This document shows, one piece after another, positions 47,788 to 56,605 of a stretch of DNA of 64,000 nucleotides. The stretch is taken from NCBI RefSeq assembly GCF_036507355.1, contig NZ_AP027877.1; one strand, given 5' to 3'. Source of the DNA: Escherichia coli (lineage in GTDB: Bacteria > Pseudomonadota > Gammaproteobacteria > Enterobacterales > Enterobacteriaceae). The notes beneath the pieces were generated by a model that searched no databases, was not told the DNA's origin, and saw only the letters and a list, made by a program, of their open reading frames with translations. The first letter of the stretch is position 1. Each line of letters starts with the position of its first letter. The translations under genes and the position numbers were made by a program.

Positions 47788-50253
<2,466 letters not shown>

Positions 50254-50270
50254 TTTCACCAATAAATAGA

Positions 50271-50298
50271 ACGGGGCCAAAGGGTCCCGTTTTTTTTC
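50271..50298 (+). terminator. Rho-independent terminator after glgP
   Basis: Hairpin acggggcc-aaag-ggtcccgt then tttttttt. Confidence 0.75.
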
Positions 50299-50369
50299 GC
50301 CATCATTTCGGAAAAGTGTCCAGAAGGGGCAAGGGGACTCGGGGAGTATAATTTCGCCATTCAGAAAGA

Positions 50370-51887
50370 ATGGAAAGAATAATGCAAAACAGAAAATGGA
50401 TTTTGTCCTCGCTGGTAATGACTTTTTTCGGCATCCCCATACTGACGCAATTTTTGGCGGCGGTTGTTGCTATGCTGGGTGTCGGACTTGCCGGTATTAT
50501 TGAAGTTTGTAATATCCTTATCACGCCAACAATTTACCTTCTGCTCAACATTTTTATGCTGGCGCTGGGCGCATTAATGCTATTTTTCTCGGGGCGAGTA
50601 TGGGCAGGCGATAGTGCACCAGAAAAAAGAGAAATAGCCGTCTGGCGGCAATGCTTTTTTCTCTTACCCGCGCTATTAACCCTGGTTGGCTGGATAATCA
50701 CGCTACATCTGGCAGATTATCAATTTCGCCAGATGGGAGCTGGTTGGTTGGCAAACCTTATGCTTCCCTGGTTGGGCGTTTTTTTAGTCTCATTAGTGGG
50801 TGGTGAGTACTGGTGGATGGTCATTATTCCCGTTGGGGCGCATATCAGTTTTTCGCTGGGATACGCCTGGCCGACCAGATATCCTTTATCCGGCACGTCC
50901 GGACTACGTTGCCGTAACTTACTCCTGTTTCTACTTCTCTTACTTGGTATTGTCGCCGGGTATCAGGCCCATTTATATAAGCAGCAAAATCCTGGTGTCG
51001 GTGTACGCGAAAATATTGATATCTGGGCCTGGCGACCCGATAAACTCAATAATCGACTGACGCCGCTGCGTGGCAAACCGCAAATTCAGTTTAGGCAAAA
51101 CTGGCCGCGAATCGATGGCGCCACGGCTGCGTACCCAATTTATGCTTCTGCATTTTATGCATTAAGCGTAATACCAGAGGATTTTCACGTTTGGGATTAT
51201 CTGGAAAACTCTCGTACGCCAGAAGCATATAACAAAATCGTTAAGGGCGATGCTGATATTATTTTCGTGGCGCAACCTTCTGGTGGGCAAAAAAAACGTG
51301 CAAAGGAATCTGGTGTCACTTTGCTGTACACCCCCTTTGCCCGTGAAGCATTCGTTTTCATCGTCAATGCGGATAATCCGGTTAATTCCCTGACTGAACA
51401 ACAGGTGCGTGACATTTTCAGTGGTGCAATTACCAATTGGCGTACTGTTGGCGGTAACGATCAGGAGATCCAGACCTGGCAGCGCCCGGAAGACTCTGGC
51501 AGCCAGACAGTGATGCAATCACAGGTCATGAAAAATGTCCGCATGATCTCGCCGCAGGAAACGGAAGTGGCAAGCGTGATGGAGGGAATGATTAAAGTCG
51601 TTGCCGAATACCGTAATACAAACAACGCAATAGGCTATACCTTCCGCTATTACGCGACGCAAATGAATGCTGATAAAAATATAAAATTGCTAGCGATTAA
51701 CGATATTACACCGACGGCGGAAAACATTCGCAACGGCAAATATGCGTACATCGTCGATGCATTTATGGTAACGAGGGAAAATACGACGTCAGAGACACAA
51801 AAATTGGTGGAATGGTTTTTAACGCCGCAGGGGCAGAGTTTGGTGGAAGATGTGGGATATGTGCCGATGTATCCAACAATGGAATAA
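50370..51887 (+). CDS. Polytopic membrane domain fused to a PstS-like (PBP_like_2) substrate-binding domain (505 aa)
   Basis: About 200 aa with ~6 hydrophobic helices, then GATAAYPIYASAFYAL...SGSQTVM...IGYTFRYYA, which resembles PstS motifs. Confidence 0.7.
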   Translation: MERIMQNRKWILSSLVMTFFGIPILTQFLAAVVAMLGVGLAGIIEVCNILITPTIYLLLNIFMLALGALMLFFSGRVWAGDSAPEKREIAVWRQCFFLLPALLTLVGWIITLHLADYQFRQMGAGWLANLMLPWLGVFLVSLVGGEYWWMVIIPVGAHISFSLGYAWPTRYPLSGTSGLRCRNLLLFLLLLLGIVAGYQAHLYKQQNPGVGVRENIDIWAWRPDKLNNRLTPLRGKPQIQFRQNWPRIDGATAAYPIYASAFYALSVIPEDFHVWDYLENSRTPEAYNKIVKGDADIIFVAQPSGGQKKRAKESGVTLLYTPFAREAFVFIVNADNPVNSLTEQQVRDIFSGAITNWRTVGGNDQEIQTWQRPEDSGSQTVMQSQVMKNVRMISPQETEVASVMEGMIKVVAEYRNTNNAIGYTFRYYATQMNADKNIKLLAINDITPTAENIRNGKYAYIVDAFMVTRENTTSETQKLVEWFLTPQGQSLVEDVGYVPMYPTME

Positions 51888-52905
51888 CGCTCGAGAGAAA
51901 GGAATCAGCGAGACGAATAAATTCACCGGTGTTTTACTATTAGGCACGGCGTTACTGGCGGGATGTGTCGACCGGGAAGGGTACTATAACAGCGTCAGGG
52001 AAGAAGAGAGCCATGGACTGACGTCTCTGCGGGGGCAACCTGCATTACGTTACAGCGATGATTGGTCAAGATGGCCGAGAGTGTACGGCGCTACAGCCTT
52101 ATACCCGCTGTATGCCTCCGCGTATTATAAATTAGTACCCGAGCCAAAAGATAAGGATCGAACCTCGCTGGCCTGGCAGGCGTATGGTTTGCAGCAAACC
52201 CGAACAGCTGAAGCCTACGATAGTCTGATTAAAGGTTCCGCGACGGTTATTTTTGTTGCACAACCGTCGGAAGGACAGAAAAAACGTGCAGAAGAAGCGG
52301 GTGTTAAACTGAAATATACCGCTTTCGCCCGCGAAGCCTTTGTCTTTATCGTTGATATTAATAACCCGGTAAATTCTCTCTCTGAGCACCAGGTTAAAGA
52401 TATTTTTAGCGGCAAAACTAGCCGCTGGAATAAAGTAGGTGGTAGTGACGAACATATAAAAGTCTGGCAGCGCCCTGAAGATTCTGGAAGCCAAACGATT
52501 ATGAAGGGGTTGGTTATGCAAGACACCCCAATGCTGCCAGCTAAAAAATCCACTGTGATTGATCTTATGGGCGGTTTAATTACTGAAGTTGCCGACTATC
52601 AAAACACGCCATCTTCCATTGGGTACACCTTCCACTATTACGTCACTCGTATGAATGACAATATGCTCAAAATGCGCAAGCAGATTAAACTTTTGGCTAT
52701 AAATGGCGTTGCGCCTACCGAGGAAAATATCCGCAACGGCACTTATCCATACATTGTGGATGCCTATATGGTGACGCGTGAAAATCCCACGCCGGAAACG
52801 CAGAAATTTGTTGACTGGTTTATAAGTCAGCAGGGGCAACAGTTGGTAGAGGATGTGGGGTATGTGCCGCTGTATGAAGCATCCCCCGAATCATCAGGAC
52901 AATAA
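51850..52905 (+). CDS. PstS-like substrate-binding lipoprotein, paralog of the upstream gene's C-terminal domain (351 aa; start uncertain)
   Basis: Lipobox LLAGC; domain collinear with the 505-aa protein; start overlaps the upstream gene by 38 nt. Confidence 0.7.
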   Translation: MWDMCRCIQQWNNAREKGISETNKFTGVLLLGTALLAGCVDREGYYNSVREEESHGLTSLRGQPALRYSDDWSRWPRVYGATALYPLYASAYYKLVPEPKDKDRTSLAWQAYGLQQTRTAEAYDSLIKGSATVIFVAQPSEGQKKRAEEAGVKLKYTAFAREAFVFIVDINNPVNSLSEHQVKDIFSGKTSRWNKVGGSDEHIKVWQRPEDSGSQTIMKGLVMQDTPMLPAKKSTVIDLMGGLITEVADYQNTPSSIGYTFHYYVTRMNDNMLKMRKQIKLLAINGVAPTEENIRNGTYPYIVDAYMVTRENPTPETQKFVDWFISQQGQQLVEDVGYVPLYEASPESSGQ

Positions 52906-53442
52906 TGATGAATATAATCAGACTTTATATTTATCCGTTATTTCTCGGCTTTGTTATTGTGCCGTTGTTGGTGTGGCCGATGGTGGTTGCGCTGGCTGCT
53001 TGTATTATCACGCTGAGTTTTCTGGGGGAAATGCTGTTCTCAATCCCGCTCATGATCAGGCGTATTTCACTTCTGCAATTACAACTTTGGTTATCGGCTG
53101 AATATGCGCTTTTCTTCTGTGTAATGTGTTGCGTTGGTTGGCAATTTACTCGTAGAACTCAATCTGAATTGAAAAGCAGGCTCCATTGTTGGTTGGTATT
53201 CGCACCGGTCTATTTATGGTTGATCCTCTGGAATATCATTTTTTACATCGCGCCAGCGAAAATTGCGTTGCTGGAAAGTATCCGCAATTTCTTTCTGCTT
53301 GTTGTCTGGCTACCCCTGAATTTTTCGCCATTTTGGCCTCAGCCGTGGACGGATTTTATCGGTCCAATAAGCGCACAGTGAGGTAGCCTGAGTTTAACGG
53401 ACACTCCTTCCTGAAATAGAATGGCATCAGAAGGAGCTAATA

Positions 53443-53745
53443 ATGAGCAGAAAAACCCAACGTTACTCTAAAGAGTTCAAAGCCGAAGCTGTCAGAACGG
53501 TTCTTGAAAATCAACTTTCGATCAGTGAAGGCGCTTCCCGATTATCTCTTCCTGAAGGCACTTTAGGACAATGGGTTACCGCCGCCAGAAAAGGGCTCGG
53601 TACTCCTGGTTCCCGCACGGTGGCTGAACTGGAATCTGAAATTCTGCAACTGCGTAAGGCGTTAAATGAAGCTCGCCTTGAGCGAGATATATTAAAAAAA
53701 GCAACAGCGTATTTTGCACAGGAGTCGCTGAAAAATACGCGTTAA
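53443..53745 (+). CDS. IS3-family transposase OrfA (HTH, 100 aa)
   Basis: MSRKTQRYSKEFKAEAVRTV...; typical IS3 OrfA with leucine zipper. Confidence 0.85.
   Translation: MSRKTQRYSKEFKAEAVRTVLENQLSISEGASRLSLPEGTLGQWVTAARKGLGTPGSRTVAELESEILQLRKALNEARLERDILKKATAYFAQESLKNTR
53694..53701 (+). promoter_or_regulatory. Probable -1 programmed frameshift site (A6G) for the OrfAB transposase
   Basis: aaaaaaag near the 3-prime end of orfA, upstream of the orfB frame. Confidence 0.55.
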
Positions 53746-53780
53746 TCGAACAATGGCGACAACAATTTCCCATTGAAGCG

Positions 53781-54599
53781 ATGTGTCAGGTATTTGGTGT
53801 ATCCAGGAGCGGTTATTACAACTGGGTACAGCATGAACCCTCAGACAGAAAACAAAGTGATGAGCGGCTAAAACTGGAGATTAAGGTGGCACATATCCGC
53901 ACTCGCGAAACATATGGAACCCGGCGGCTCCAGACGGAGCTGGCAGAGAATGGCATCATCGTTGGTCGTGACCGACTGGCACGTCTTCGTAAGGAGCTAA
54001 GGCTACGCTGTAAGCAGAAACGCAAGTTCAGAGCGACTACGAACTCGAACCACAATCTGCCAGTTGCGCCAAATCTGCTGAACCAGACGTTCGCTCCTAC
54101 AGCACCAAATCAGGTCTGGGTGGCGGACCTGACGTATGTTGCCACACAGGAGGGATGGTTGTACCTCGCTGGCATCAAAGATGTTTATACGTGCGAAATT
54201 GTCGGCTACGCCATGGGAGAGCGCATGACAAAAGAGCTGACAGGTAAAGCCCTGTTTATGGCGCTCAGGAGCCAGCGCCCACCTGCCGGGCTAATCCACC
54301 ACTCTGATCGAGGTTCACAGTACTGCGCATACGATTACCGGGTCATACAGGAGCAGTTTGGTCTGAAAACATCAATGTCGCGTAAAGGTAACTGTTACGA
54401 CAACGCTCCGATGGAAAGCTTCTGGGGAACGCTGAAAAATGAGAGCCTGAGCCACTATCGTTTTAATAACCGGGATGAAGCCATCTCAGTAATACGGGAA
54501 TACATTGAGATTTTCTACAATCGTCAGCGTCGTCACTCTCGTCTGGGGAATATCTCCCCGGCAGCCTTCAGGGAAAAATATCATCAGATGGCTGCTTAA
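53781..54599 (+). CDS. IS3-family transposase OrfB (DDE integrase core); the true N-terminus is probably fused to OrfA by frameshifting
   Basis: 272-aa ORF with an rve-type integrase core. Confidence 0.85.
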   Translation: MCQVFGVSRSGYYNWVQHEPSDRKQSDERLKLEIKVAHIRTRETYGTRRLQTELAENGIIVGRDRLARLRKELRLRCKQKRKFRATTNSNHNLPVAPNLLNQTFAPTAPNQVWVADLTYVATQEGWLYLAGIKDVYTCEIVGYAMGERMTKELTGKALFMALRSQRPPAGLIHHSDRGSQYCAYDYRVIQEQFGLKTSMSRKGNCYDNAPMESFWGTLKNESLSHYRFNNRDEAISVIREYIEIFYNRQRRHSRLGNISPAAFREKYHQMAA

Positions 54600-54827
54600 A
54601 AAAAGAACAAATGGTAGTGTCCGCTATTGCCAGTACACCTCACAGCTTGGTTTTGCGTTGGGATATTATTGCCAGTGGCGCAGCAAAAATAGATGCCAGA
54701 TACGGAAGTGGAGTGAGTGGGGAACGTGCTTAAGTTTTGTTACGTTGGGTATGATGGCGTGGGCTTTGCGGTAATTCCCTGAATCAAAAAGTAGGTCAGA
54801 TTGTTGACAACGTGGCACTTTGTTCAT

Positions 54828-54930
54828 GCCTGATGCGGCGTGAATGCCTTCTCAGGCCTACAAAATCATGCAAATTCAATATATTGCATAAACCACGTAG
54901 GCCTGATAAGCGTAGCGCATCAGGCAATTT
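54828..54930. repeat. REP pair downstream of glpD
   Basis: gcctgatgcggcgtgaatgccttctcaggccta and gtaggcctgataagcgtagcgcatcaggca. Confidence 0.7.
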
Positions 54931-54988
54931 TGTGTTTGTCATCAGTCTCAGGCCAGATTGAAATCTGACCTGATCACCTTACGTTAAT

Positions 54989-56494
54989 TTACGACGCCAG
55001 CGACAACTTCTGCTGCGTATACTCCACCAGCCACTGACTCACACGAGATTGTTGATCCGCATTCAGCCACATGCCTTGTTTTGTGCGACGCCACAGGGCA
55101 TCGTCGGCGCGGCGGACCCATTCGTGATCCACCAGGTATTTCAGCTCCGCTTCGTAGAACTCATGACCGAAATCTTCCCCGAGATCGCTTACCGTCCCCG
55201 CATTGCCGAGCAGCAACTCGCTGTTGCTGCCGTAAGTGCGCGCGTAGTGACGTGCCAGCGATTCGGTCAGGAACGGGTAGCGGCGGCGCAGGCGGGCGGC
55301 ATAATCGTCGCGGTCGCCTTCAATGGCACCACCCGGCAGCACGCTCTCTTTCGTCCATGCCGGGCCAATGCCCTGATAATACGGCGTTAGTTTTTCCAGC
55401 GCGTGCTCCGCCAGTTTGCGGTAGGTGGTCAGCTTACCGCCGAATACCGACAGCAGCGGTGCTTTGCCGTTTTCATCATGGATATCAAGGGTGTAATCAC
55501 GGGTAATGGCCTGCGGCGAGTCGGACTCATCATCACACAGCGGACGCACACCGGAGTAAGTCCAGACGATATCGTCACGGCTTAACTGCTTTTTAAAGTG
55601 CGCGTTATACACTTTCAGCAGGTAATTGATTTCACTCTCTTCAATCTTCACCGCTTTCGGATCGCCTTTGTATTCCACATCGGTGGTGCCGATGATGGAA
55701 AACTCATCCATCCACGGGATCACGAACACAATGCGTTTATCTTCGTTTTGCAGAATGTAGGCTTGCTTCTGGGTATGCACACGCGGCACCACAATATGGC
55801 TGCCTTTGATCAGGCGAATGCCATAAGGCGAAGGCAGATGCATGCCGTCGTCGAAGAACTGTTTCACCCACGGGCCGGTAGCATTCACCAGGCCGCGCGC
55901 CTGCCAGCGGTATTTTTTGCCGGTGTCGATATCTTCCGCTTCCACAATCCACAAGCCGTTTTCGCGGCGAGCAGAGGTGGCGCGAGTGCGGGTAAGCACT
56001 TCGCCGCCTTTACGCACCACCATCTGAGCGTTGGCGAGTACCAGACGGGCGTCGTCTACCCAACAGTCGGAATATTCGAATCCGCGCTTGATTTCCGGTT
56101 TTAACACTGAGTTTGCGCCAAAACGCAAGCCGGTTGATCCCGGCAGGCTGGTGCGTTTACCCAGATGATCGTACATAAACAGACCAATCCGAATCATCCA
56201 CGCCGGGCGCAGATGCGGACGATGTGGCAGGCGAAAACGCATCGGGAAGGCGATATGCGGGGCCATTTTCAGCAGCACTTCACGTTCAGCCAGCGCCTCG
56301 CTGACCAGGCGGAATTCATAGTGCTCAAGGTAGCGCAGGCCACCGTGAATGAGTTTTGAACTAGCGGAAGAGGTCGCGCAAGCGAGATCCTGCGCCTCCA
56401 GCATCAGCACGGATAAACCGCGTCCAGCGGCGTCTGCCGCGATACCAGCACCATTGATGCCGCCCCCTATCACAATCAGATCTTTGGTTTCCAT
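54989..56494 (-). CDS. glpD: Aerobic glycerol-3-phosphate dehydrogenase GlpD (501 aa)
   Basis: ORF trimmed to METKDLIVIGGGINGAGIAADAAGRG (FAD-binding motif). Confidence 0.95.
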   Translation of the reverse strand: METKDLIVIGGGINGAGIAADAAGRGLSVLMLEAQDLACATSSASSKLIHGGLRYLEHYEFRLVSEALAEREVLLKMAPHIAFPMRFRLPHRPHLRPAWMIRIGLFMYDHLGKRTSLPGSTGLRFGANSVLKPEIKRGFEYSDCWVDDARLVLANAQMVVRKGGEVLTRTRATSARRENGLWIVEAEDIDTGKKYRWQARGLVNATGPWVKQFFDDGMHLPSPYGIRLIKGSHIVVPRVHTQKQAYILQNEDKRIVFVIPWMDEFSIIGTTDVEYKGDPKAVKIEESEINYLLKVYNAHFKKQLSRDDIVWTYSGVRPLCDDESDSPQAITRDYTLDIHDENGKAPLLSVFGGKLTTYRKLAEHALEKLTPYYQGIGPAWTKESVLPGGAIEGDRDDYAARLRRRYPFLTESLARHYARTYGSNSELLLGNAGTVSDLGEDFGHEFYEAELKYLVDHEWVRRADDALWRRTKQGMWLNADQQSRVSQWLVEYTQQKLSLAS

Positions 56495-56605
56495 GCTGCC
56501 CTCATTCACTTTCGTTAAAGCTCATAAATGTTCGTTATCGAACATATTAGCAAAGAATTGCGCTTTAGGTAACATTGAAAAAACATTTTAGAGTGATATG
56601 TATAA

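Follow-up and report, generated by a model that had tools for sequence, protein, structure and literature searches.

PstS-like binding domain fused to a polytopic membrane domain at a strain-variable locus between glgP and glpD of Escherichia coli

The three genes between glgP and glpD

In a 64,000-nucleotide (nt) stretch of Escherichia coli contig NZ_AP027877.1 (hereafter the window, to which coordinates refer unless another source is named), the plus strand between glgP and glpD carries three genes that are referred to here as g1, g2 and g3. The first encodes a protein of 501 amino acids (aa) in which a polytopic membrane domain precedes a domain related to the phosphate-binding protein PstS, the second encodes a PstS-like paralogue with a lipobox, and the third corresponds to a membrane protein alone. 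An original prediction made from this sequence had described two adjacent paralogous PstS-type genes, an N-terminal domain of about 200 aa with approximately six helices in the first product and a lipobox in the second, and each of these features stands. Only g1 is intact in this strain; g2 lacks its normal start codon, and the insertion sequence (IS) IS600 interrupts g3. The locus is a chromosomal accessory island that varies among strains and is partly decayed in this one, and the window itself is ordinary.

The g1 gene occupies positions 50382 to 51887 on the plus strand, an assignment based on its open reading frame (ORF), Pfam matches, the annotation of orthologues and an AlphaFold2 (AF2) model. 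The longest ORF opens at 50370, but the ATG at 50382, from which the protein begins MQNRKW as in its orthologues, appears to be the more plausible start. RefSeq models of 502 aa, whose starts were compared at three loci (L001 4124, L009 2625 and L011 2125 in the coordinates of the retrieved loci), begin one codon before the ATG of MQNRKW or MPNRKW, and that codon is ATA in two strains. The exact g1 protein of the window is present in NCBI records of E. coli. Between E. coli alleles, the ratio of nonsynonymous to synonymous substitution rates (dN/dS) is 0.10-0.15 for the whole of g1, 0.17-0.24 for its membrane domain and 0.055-0.096 for its binding domain, and the value for g3 is 0.24-0.38; both genes are under purifying selection.

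In other strains g2 has 330 codons, which correspond to positions 51913 to 52905 of the plus strand as judged from Pfam, the O157:H7 annotation and alignment. The RefSeq annotation of O157:H7 lists products of 502 aa for g1 and 330 aa for g2, together with a 200-aa hypothetical protein for g3. In O157:H7 and in the 98.7%-identical strain 2022CK-00450, g2 begins with its normal ATG, which lies 26 nt beyond the stop codon of g1, whereas the aligned codon of the window (51913 to 51915, plus strand) is ACG, with a Shine-Dalgarno-like AAAGGA motif 9 nt upstream. This is the sole non-synonymous difference from the O157 allele of g2, the rest of the protein being identical, and since a single base separates the gene from a functional allele its loss looks recent. 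The only in-frame ATG codons, at 51850 and 51859, lie inside g1 in poor ribosome-binding contexts, and g2 is probably poorly translated or silent in this strain. The two genes had been thought to overlap, but the 38-nt overlap arises only with the longest ORF (from the ATG at 51850). It is an artefact of the paralogous coding sequence for ...EDVGYVP[LM]Y, which holds an ATG in another frame (MW[DG]MCRC); such alternative-frame starts are found at the 3' ends of both g1 (MWDMCRC, 51850) and g2 (MWGMCRC, 52853).

The lipobox of g2, L-A-G-C in translation, is encoded at 51955 to 51966 on the plus strand and is followed by valine. Orthologues of g2 carry the pattern [LVI][ASTVI][GAS]C of bacterial lipoproteins (MNKFTGVLLLGTALLAGC). 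By the +2 rule for lipoprotein sorting, the valine after the cysteine would direct the protein to the outer membrane. The signal peptide of g2 has a hydrophobic core similar to the last helix of g1, and Superficieibacter electus has a truncated g1 whose last helix bears an LSGC motif. Comparison of these sequences suggests that a lipoprotein version arises when the first helices are lost, and the signal peptide of g2 was probably derived from the last membrane helix. The binding domains of g1 and g2 share 58% identity over 286 aa and each is complete, so the genes are paralogues rather than fragments of a single gene broken by a frameshift, a possibility for which the original prediction had allowed.

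The start of g3 overlaps the g2 stop codon by 1 nt, and the ORF of its 5' part (codons 1-158) runs from 52905 to 53378 on the plus strand. It is interrupted by a 1264-bp IS600 element of the IS3 family (53379 to 54642, plus strand), which is 99.5-99.8% identical to annotated IS600 copies and has their length of ~1.26 kb, orfA and orfB ORFs, terminal inverted repeats starting with TGAGGT, and a 3-bp target duplication (CAG at 53376-53378 and 54643-54645). The last 42 codons of g3 and its stop codon were located by reading and joining the sequence, and lie at 54646 to 54774 (plus strand); with 52905-53378 and 54646-54774 joined, the frame again encodes a 200-aa protein that ends ...MMAWALR, as in O157:H7. 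A third, membrane-protein gene had been expected after g2, and an ORF does open at 52905, but the gene found there is incomplete, being split by IS600. The truncated g3 protein is also present in NCBI records of E. coli. Alignment of the g3 profile with that of the g1 membrane domain by hhalign is colinear over 171 columns (probability 98.5%, E 3.9e-15); in a second run, to which the controls belong, the true pair scored 104, compared with 23 for a reversed profile, at most 19 after column shuffling and at most 34.5 after block shuffling. Because of this match and its clean controls, g3 is taken to be a membrane-only paralogue of the g1 membrane domain. The original prediction missed this homology as well as the IS600 element in g3, the loss of the g2 start codon and the artefactual nature of the g1/g2 overlap.

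Among 5426 complete E. coli genomes searched by megablast with a threshold of >=80% coverage, g1 is present in 3340, g3 in at least 2054 and the whole three-gene region in 885, and the locus is never found on a plasmid. Related strains show independent IS insertions in this locus. Genomes of the K-12 type have yzgL at the chromosomal position of g1, and the earlier statement that only this short remnant persists in K-12 was borne out. The gene consists of the first 218 nt of g1 (97% identity) and the last 60 nt of g3, as at the retrieved locus L010 2125-2420; it keeps codons 1-74 of g1 and has no binding domain. Read from this alignment, yzgL is the remnant of a deletion that fused g1 to g3, a fusion that may have come about when these two genes recombined through their homologous membrane-domain sequences.

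Other E. coli strains carry unrelated cassettes between g1 and g3, one type encoding proteins of 236 and 255 aa and another a protein of 258 aa. The cytoplasmic proteins encoded by the cassettes of E. coli strains and Superficieibacter include families of 236/252 aa and 255/258/274 aa (retrieved loci L009 4148-6236, L011 3736-5114 and L018 7552-13019). The last ~10 codons before g3 are common to different cassettes (..ASPE[SQ]SGQ), and the interval from g1 to g3 looks like a hot spot of cassette exchange. The 236-, 255- and 258-aa proteins had no match in Pfam or PADLOC, and the PADLOC search for anti-phage defence systems likewise gave no match for g1, g2 or g3; a role of the locus in anti-phage defence was rejected on these grounds. 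A cassette of Superficieibacter, which is not part of the window, encodes a 935-aa helicase that matches Mokosh MkoA (E 3e-44).

In Salmonella and Klebsiella oxytoca g1 lies at the same position and is followed by a gene for a small PRK09781/YbbD_head lipoprotein. Faint matches of the Klebsiella and Salmonella neighbours to DUF4279 and YbbD_head gave a lead toward immunity proteins, which was dropped as the 236- and 255-aa proteins of E. coli have no Pfam match. Salmonella enterica has a second member of the g1 family, a 498-aa protein with 455 cluster members that is also solitary and lies between ruvC and yebB/ruvA (L006 8001-9497). In Leclercia a gene for polyphosphate kinase 2 (PPK2) and then a CcdB toxin gene come after the family gene on the same strand (L013/L014 8001-10449); the PPK2 gene is the only phosphate-related neighbour that was noticed, and it is a single case.

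Binding site, membrane domain and family

The PstS-like domain of g1 spans residues ~226-501 (51057 to 51884, plus strand), as delimited from PF12849, TIGR02136, Foldseek and residue mapping. PF12849 (PBP_like_2) matches g1 at residues 247-485 (E 2.4e-29) and the longest ORF of g2 at residues 115-327 (E 9.6e-30). The TIGR02136 scores of 121.2 bits for g1 and 118.8 bits for g2 do not reach the curated cut-off of 206.6, and the TIGR00975 score of 15.6 bits does not reach its cut-off of 205. In the PDB the top 38 Foldseek matches of the domain are all phosphate-binding proteins of the PstS or DING type (best E ~1e-14), led by 9L8J, 4GD5, 1TWY and 4EXL with E. coli PstS lower down. The Pfam, TIGR02136 and Foldseek matches together support the PstS-like fold that had been proposed.

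The nearest relatives are the TIGR02136 proteins (PstS_2; Clostridium perfringens 4GD5/4Q8R, Vibrio cholerae 1TWY and Synechocystis Sll0540 9L8J), which are closest in sequence (profile E 1e-25) as well as in fold (TM-score of 0.76-0.79 relative to the target). Motifs common to both groups are NPV..LT..Q[IV]..I[FY][ST]G.I.NW..VGG and R..[DG]SG[ST]. The g1 family differs from them in its signatures WPRLDGATA, AQPS, [WFY]QRPxxSGSQ and FRYYAT, in its membrane domain, in the absence of linked transporter genes and in scoring below the TIGR02136 cut-off. E. coli PstS, the binding protein of PstSCAB (PDB 1IXH/2ABH), has the same type II periplasmic binding fold (Foldseek E ~1e-8) and an AIGY motif that recurs in g1. 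It is only ~16% identical to g1, which lies outside the pst operon and has a polytopic membrane domain in place of a cleavable signal peptide.

The ligand site was mapped by hhalign of the family profile against PstS from E. coli MG1655, that is, by sequence profile and not by superposed coordinates. In this alignment Ser38 of PstS corresponds to Thr279 of g1, Arg135 to Arg368, Asp137 to Glu370 and Ser139-Gly140-Thr141 to Ser372-Gly373-Ser374. Thr10 corresponds to Thr248 if the G-A-T motif that both proteins share is read without gaps; in the hhalign alignment, which had no confidence in this region, Thr10 is paired with a neighbouring alanine. Compared with the full ligand set of E. coli PstS (Thr10, Phe11, Ser38, Asp56, Arg135, Ser139, Gly140 and Thr141), g1 thus appears to keep the two hydroxyl positions as Thr, the Arg and an S-G-S segment, whereas Asp56 is replaced by Ala297. 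The equivalent of Asp56 is Ala or Gly, followed by x-P-S, in family members across phyla. The predicted anion site appears largely intact. Asp56 of PstS accepts the phosphate proton and excludes sulfate, and its loss suggests an altered specificity, so that the ligand of g1 may differ from plain orthophosphate.

The membrane domain comprises residues 1-202 (50382 to 50987, plus strand) and, modelled alone by AF2, has a predicted local distance difference test (pLDDT) score of 89.3 and a predicted template modelling (pTM) score of 0.86. For full-length g1, modelled with 61 homologues, the values are 85.8 and 0.72. The hydrophobic stretch resolves into six helices in the model (residues 2-43, 49-75, 83-110, a broken stretch at 115-140, 145-165 and 173-202), after which the PstS-type alpha/beta domain begins. 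Pfam gave no match, BPD_transp_1 included, for residues 1-240 of g1. A Foldseek search of the PDB with the membrane domain was also negative (best E 1.4, TM-score <=0.3), and in AFDB50 matches were confined to the domain's own family. As a sequence query on its own, the domain had only 46 matches among 1.84 billion representatives, and comparison with PstC and PstA by hhalign gave probabilities of 0.2-0.3%, indicating that these are unrelated. The modelled fold matches no solved structure and is specific to the g1 family, and it is previously undescribed.

Charge distribution bears on how this domain crosses the membrane. Over the 61 homologues, the mean number of Lys and Arg residues is 1.9 in the N-terminal tail, 2.0 in the loop between helices 2 and 3 and 3.0 in the loop between helices 5 and 6 (sum 6.9), compared with 0.1, 0.3 and 0.1 in the other three loops (sum 0.5). 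If all three positive segments are cytoplasmic, helices 4 and 5 must make one net crossing, and AF2 splits helix 4 into pieces of no more than 13 aa. Members from Bacillales show a clean three-helix pattern with the N-terminus inside and the C-terminus outside and a +4 loop before the last helix. A strict six-crossing topology fitted the positive-inside rule poorly and was rejected in favor of five crossings with a short helix 4. Taken with the export signal of g2, the charge pattern, the broken helix 4 and the Bacillales pattern favor an N-in/C-out g1 whose binding domain would be periplasmic, a likely answer to a question that the original prediction had left to topology analysis.

Proteins that combine such a membrane domain with a PstS-like domain form a widespread family. 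With the motifs [WFY]QRPx[DGN]SGSQ and P[FIV][AG][RK]EAFVF, at least 582 loci were found in 100,044 genomes, one per species; these loci come from about ten phyla, among them Pseudomonadota, Campylobacterota, Bacillota, Actinomycetota, Planctomycetota, Spirochaetota, Synergistota, Bacteroidota, Verrucomicrobiota and Chloroflexota. Of the 61 family ORFs taken from the best 80 of these loci, nearly all have an N-terminal extension of 125-270 aa with 3-7 hydrophobic segments. A hidden Markov model (HMM) of the enterobacterial membrane domain matches proteins from Bacillota, Actinomycetota, Spirochaetota, Synergistota and Burkholderiales with E values of 1e-23 to 1e-9, which indicates that the fusion is old and not convergent. 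Tandem copies occur in gut metagenomes, four in one metagenome-assembled genome of Helicobacteraceae (L032 241-7164) and two in others (e.g. L026 5230-8336), and these parallel the g1/g2 duplication of E. coli. A locus in Opitutaceae that was considered as a split pair of binding protein and membrane-only protein was rejected, as it is a degenerate tandem repeat.

When ORFs within five genes on either side of the family gene were clustered for the same best 80 loci, no conserved neighbor emerged, only generic families without a fixed position. The largest clusters were generic ABC ATPases, histidine kinases and GGDEF proteins, each at 5-10 of the 80 loci. With PstS, PstC, PstA and PstB of E. 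coli as queries, these neighborhoods yielded no homologue of PstC, two weak matches to generic permeases resembling PstA, and a true pstB near a single locus. No riboswitch was found upstream of the family genes at 11 Bacillota loci. Searches of the literature for a function of the family (through yzgL, PBP_like_2 or PstS-like proteins with transmembrane segments, STM3527/3528 and O157 locus tags) found none, and entries for STM3527 and Z4789 in expression tables could not be linked with certainty to the genes described here.

Possible functions of the tethered binding domain

The original prediction noted that the layout is not that of a standard ATP-binding cassette (ABC) transporter, and this is confirmed both in the window, where no ABC permease, ABC ATPase or pst gene lies near g1-g3 between glgP upstream and IS600 and glpD downstream, and at the 80 family loci described above. 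Importers of the OpuA/GlnPQ type resemble g1 in having a covalent link between a binding domain and a polytopic membrane domain. In g1, however, the binding domain is C-terminal, the membrane domain has no match to BPD_transp_1 and is unrelated to PstC and PstA, and no ATPase gene is adjacent, so that the locus shows neither the permease-homologous domain nor the ATPase which define an importer with a fused binding domain. The best explanation, to which a probability of about one half is assigned, is that this accessory locus works outside any ABC importer and that g1 is a stand-alone periplasmic receptor for an oxyanion, tethered to the membrane. The database name of these proteins, a generic PstS family ABC transporter subunit, is at best half right and probably misleading.

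In such a receptor the membrane domain would hold the PstS-like domain at the periplasmic side of the cytoplasmic membrane, where it might close on a tetrahedral oxyanion or a phosphoryl group through Thr248, Thr279, Arg368 and Ser372-Gly-Ser374. With Ala or Gly in place of the phosphate-selecting Asp, this ligand may be something other than plain orthophosphate. The loaded domain would then act on the membrane domain of the same protein, perhaps within a hetero-oligomer that includes g3, and the membrane domain would be a functional partner that takes over the ligand or changes state. The outcome would be ATP-independent capture, retention or hand-over of the ligand at the membrane rather than its delivery to a Pst-type transporter. 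The secondary transporters of the TRAP and TTT types, in which a substrate-binding protein (SBP) serves a membrane component without ATP, are alike in concept and provide a working analogy for a transport version of this mechanism. They differ from the g1 family, which resembles DctQM and TctA neither in sequence nor in fold and whose membrane domain is much smaller (~200 aa, and ~125 aa in Bacillales) with few conserved polar residues. The suggestion in the original prediction that these genes could form a sensor or an uptake module is a reasonable hypothesis rather than a result.

Several observations weigh against a stand-alone receptor. The scarcity of conserved polar residues in the membrane domain offers weak support for a translocation path, and the Bacillales versions have only ~3 helices. 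The closest solved PstS proteins of the TIGR02136 type, such as 4GD5 with phosphate bound, also diverge around Asp56, so the missing Asp may say less about specificity than it seems to. The Salmonella and Klebsiella loci examined have no g3. An intact g1 is missing from approximately 38% of the complete E. coli genomes, IS1 lies inside g1 in the closest complete genome (NZ_CP104681.1) and IS600 lies in g3 here, which together indicate that the locus is dispensable.

A wider proposal, advanced tentatively, is that the g1 family constitutes a distinct and ancient stand-alone class in which a domain of 3-6 helices and an outer domain derived from PstS form an ATP-independent device for uptake or signaling. 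As its ligand it would take a phosphate-type oxyanion that is not plain orthophosphate, such as a phosphomonoester, a phosphonate or another tetrahedral anion, and paralogues like g3 would serve as subunits. The family is found in most E. coli and Salmonella, in many Bacillota, Actinomycetota and Campylobacterota and in other phyla, and its genes are already in the databases under a generic name. Knowing what the ligand is and what the membrane domain does would reveal a new bacterial use of the binding-protein fold at the membrane and would correct thousands of annotations. The family is a reasonable experimental target.

Alternatively, g1 and g2 could be additional tethered phosphate-binding proteins that feed orthophosphate to a PstCAB transporter encoded elsewhere, with the membrane domain as a mere anchor. 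Mycobacteria and cyanobacteria have multiple PstS paralogues, which provide a model for this arrangement. The homology to PstS is clear, most ligand residues are kept, E. coli has pstSCAB elsewhere on its genome, and the database name implies such a role. Nevertheless it is unlikely, given that the scores of both proteins (121 and 119 bits) fall well short of the 206.6 bits of the curated PstS cut-off, the Asp56 equivalent is lost family-wide, and 79 of the 80 loci are away from pst genes. In addition, a multi-helix domain that is kept across phyla, has motifs of its own and exists as a stand-alone paralogue under purifying selection is more than an anchor needs.

It is also conceivable, if rather doubtful, that g1 is a ligand sensor or co-receptor whose loaded domain alters the membrane domain and thereby signals to an unlinked histidine kinase, diguanylate cyclase or chemoreceptor. 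The action of PstS on CtpL in Pseudomonas is a model for such a co-receptor. More generally, SBPs are known to act through receptors (PMC8050422). Histidine kinases resembling PhoR or PnpS occur at 5 of the 80 loci, three of them directly upstream, and GGDEF proteins likewise occur at 5. Yet each of these neighbors is seen at only ~6% of loci and belongs to a very common gene family, and there is no conserved partner. The protein itself differs from signal receptors with an SBP domain in that it ends with the binding domain and has no cytoplasmic output domain, its cytoplasmic loops being shorter than ~20 aa.

That the locus is an evolutionary leftover without current function in this strain, in which tandem PstS-like duplicates are being lost, would account for the lost start codon of g2, the IS600 in g3, the IS1 that cuts g1 in the closest genome, the fusion remnant in K-12 and the absent or partial locus of many genomes, but it is improbable given an intact g1 in the window and in the 3340 genomes counted, its low dN/dS of 0.10-0.15, a family kept across phyla and a g2 that is one base from a functional allele.

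Sequences flanking the locus

The conserved upstream neighbor of the locus is the glycogen phosphorylase gene glgP, an 815-aa ORF (47806 to 50253, plus strand) that is annotated as glgP at the same position in O157:H7. The G+C content falls from ~0.51 in glgP to 0.44-0.48 over the three ORFs of the locus, which in the window are 50370-51887, 51850-52905 and 52905-53381 on the plus strand and are followed by the IS3-family element. A hairpin with a T-run at 50272 to 50297 (plus strand), read from the sequence, is likely an intrinsic terminator of glgP, although it was absent from the output of a simple terminator scan of positions 50150-55000. If this is a terminator, g1 would have its own transcription start in the ~85-nt spacer that follows. 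By eye no Pho box was recognizable in positions 50298-50381, a promoter scan upstream of g1 gave only chance-level matches, and no riboswitch or other cis-acting RNA was found there.

Downstream, the conserved neighbor is glpD (54989 to 56509, minus strand), identified from its ORF and from annotation in related genomes. The spacer between the end of g3 and glpD is rich in repetitive extragenic palindromic (REP) sequences. Beside a sub-threshold match to naRNA4 (54822-54858, minus strand), this spacer contains an Rfam match to the small RNA ES036 (CssrF) at 54862-54904 on the plus strand, with a score of 43.6 bits compared with a gathering score of 37.6.

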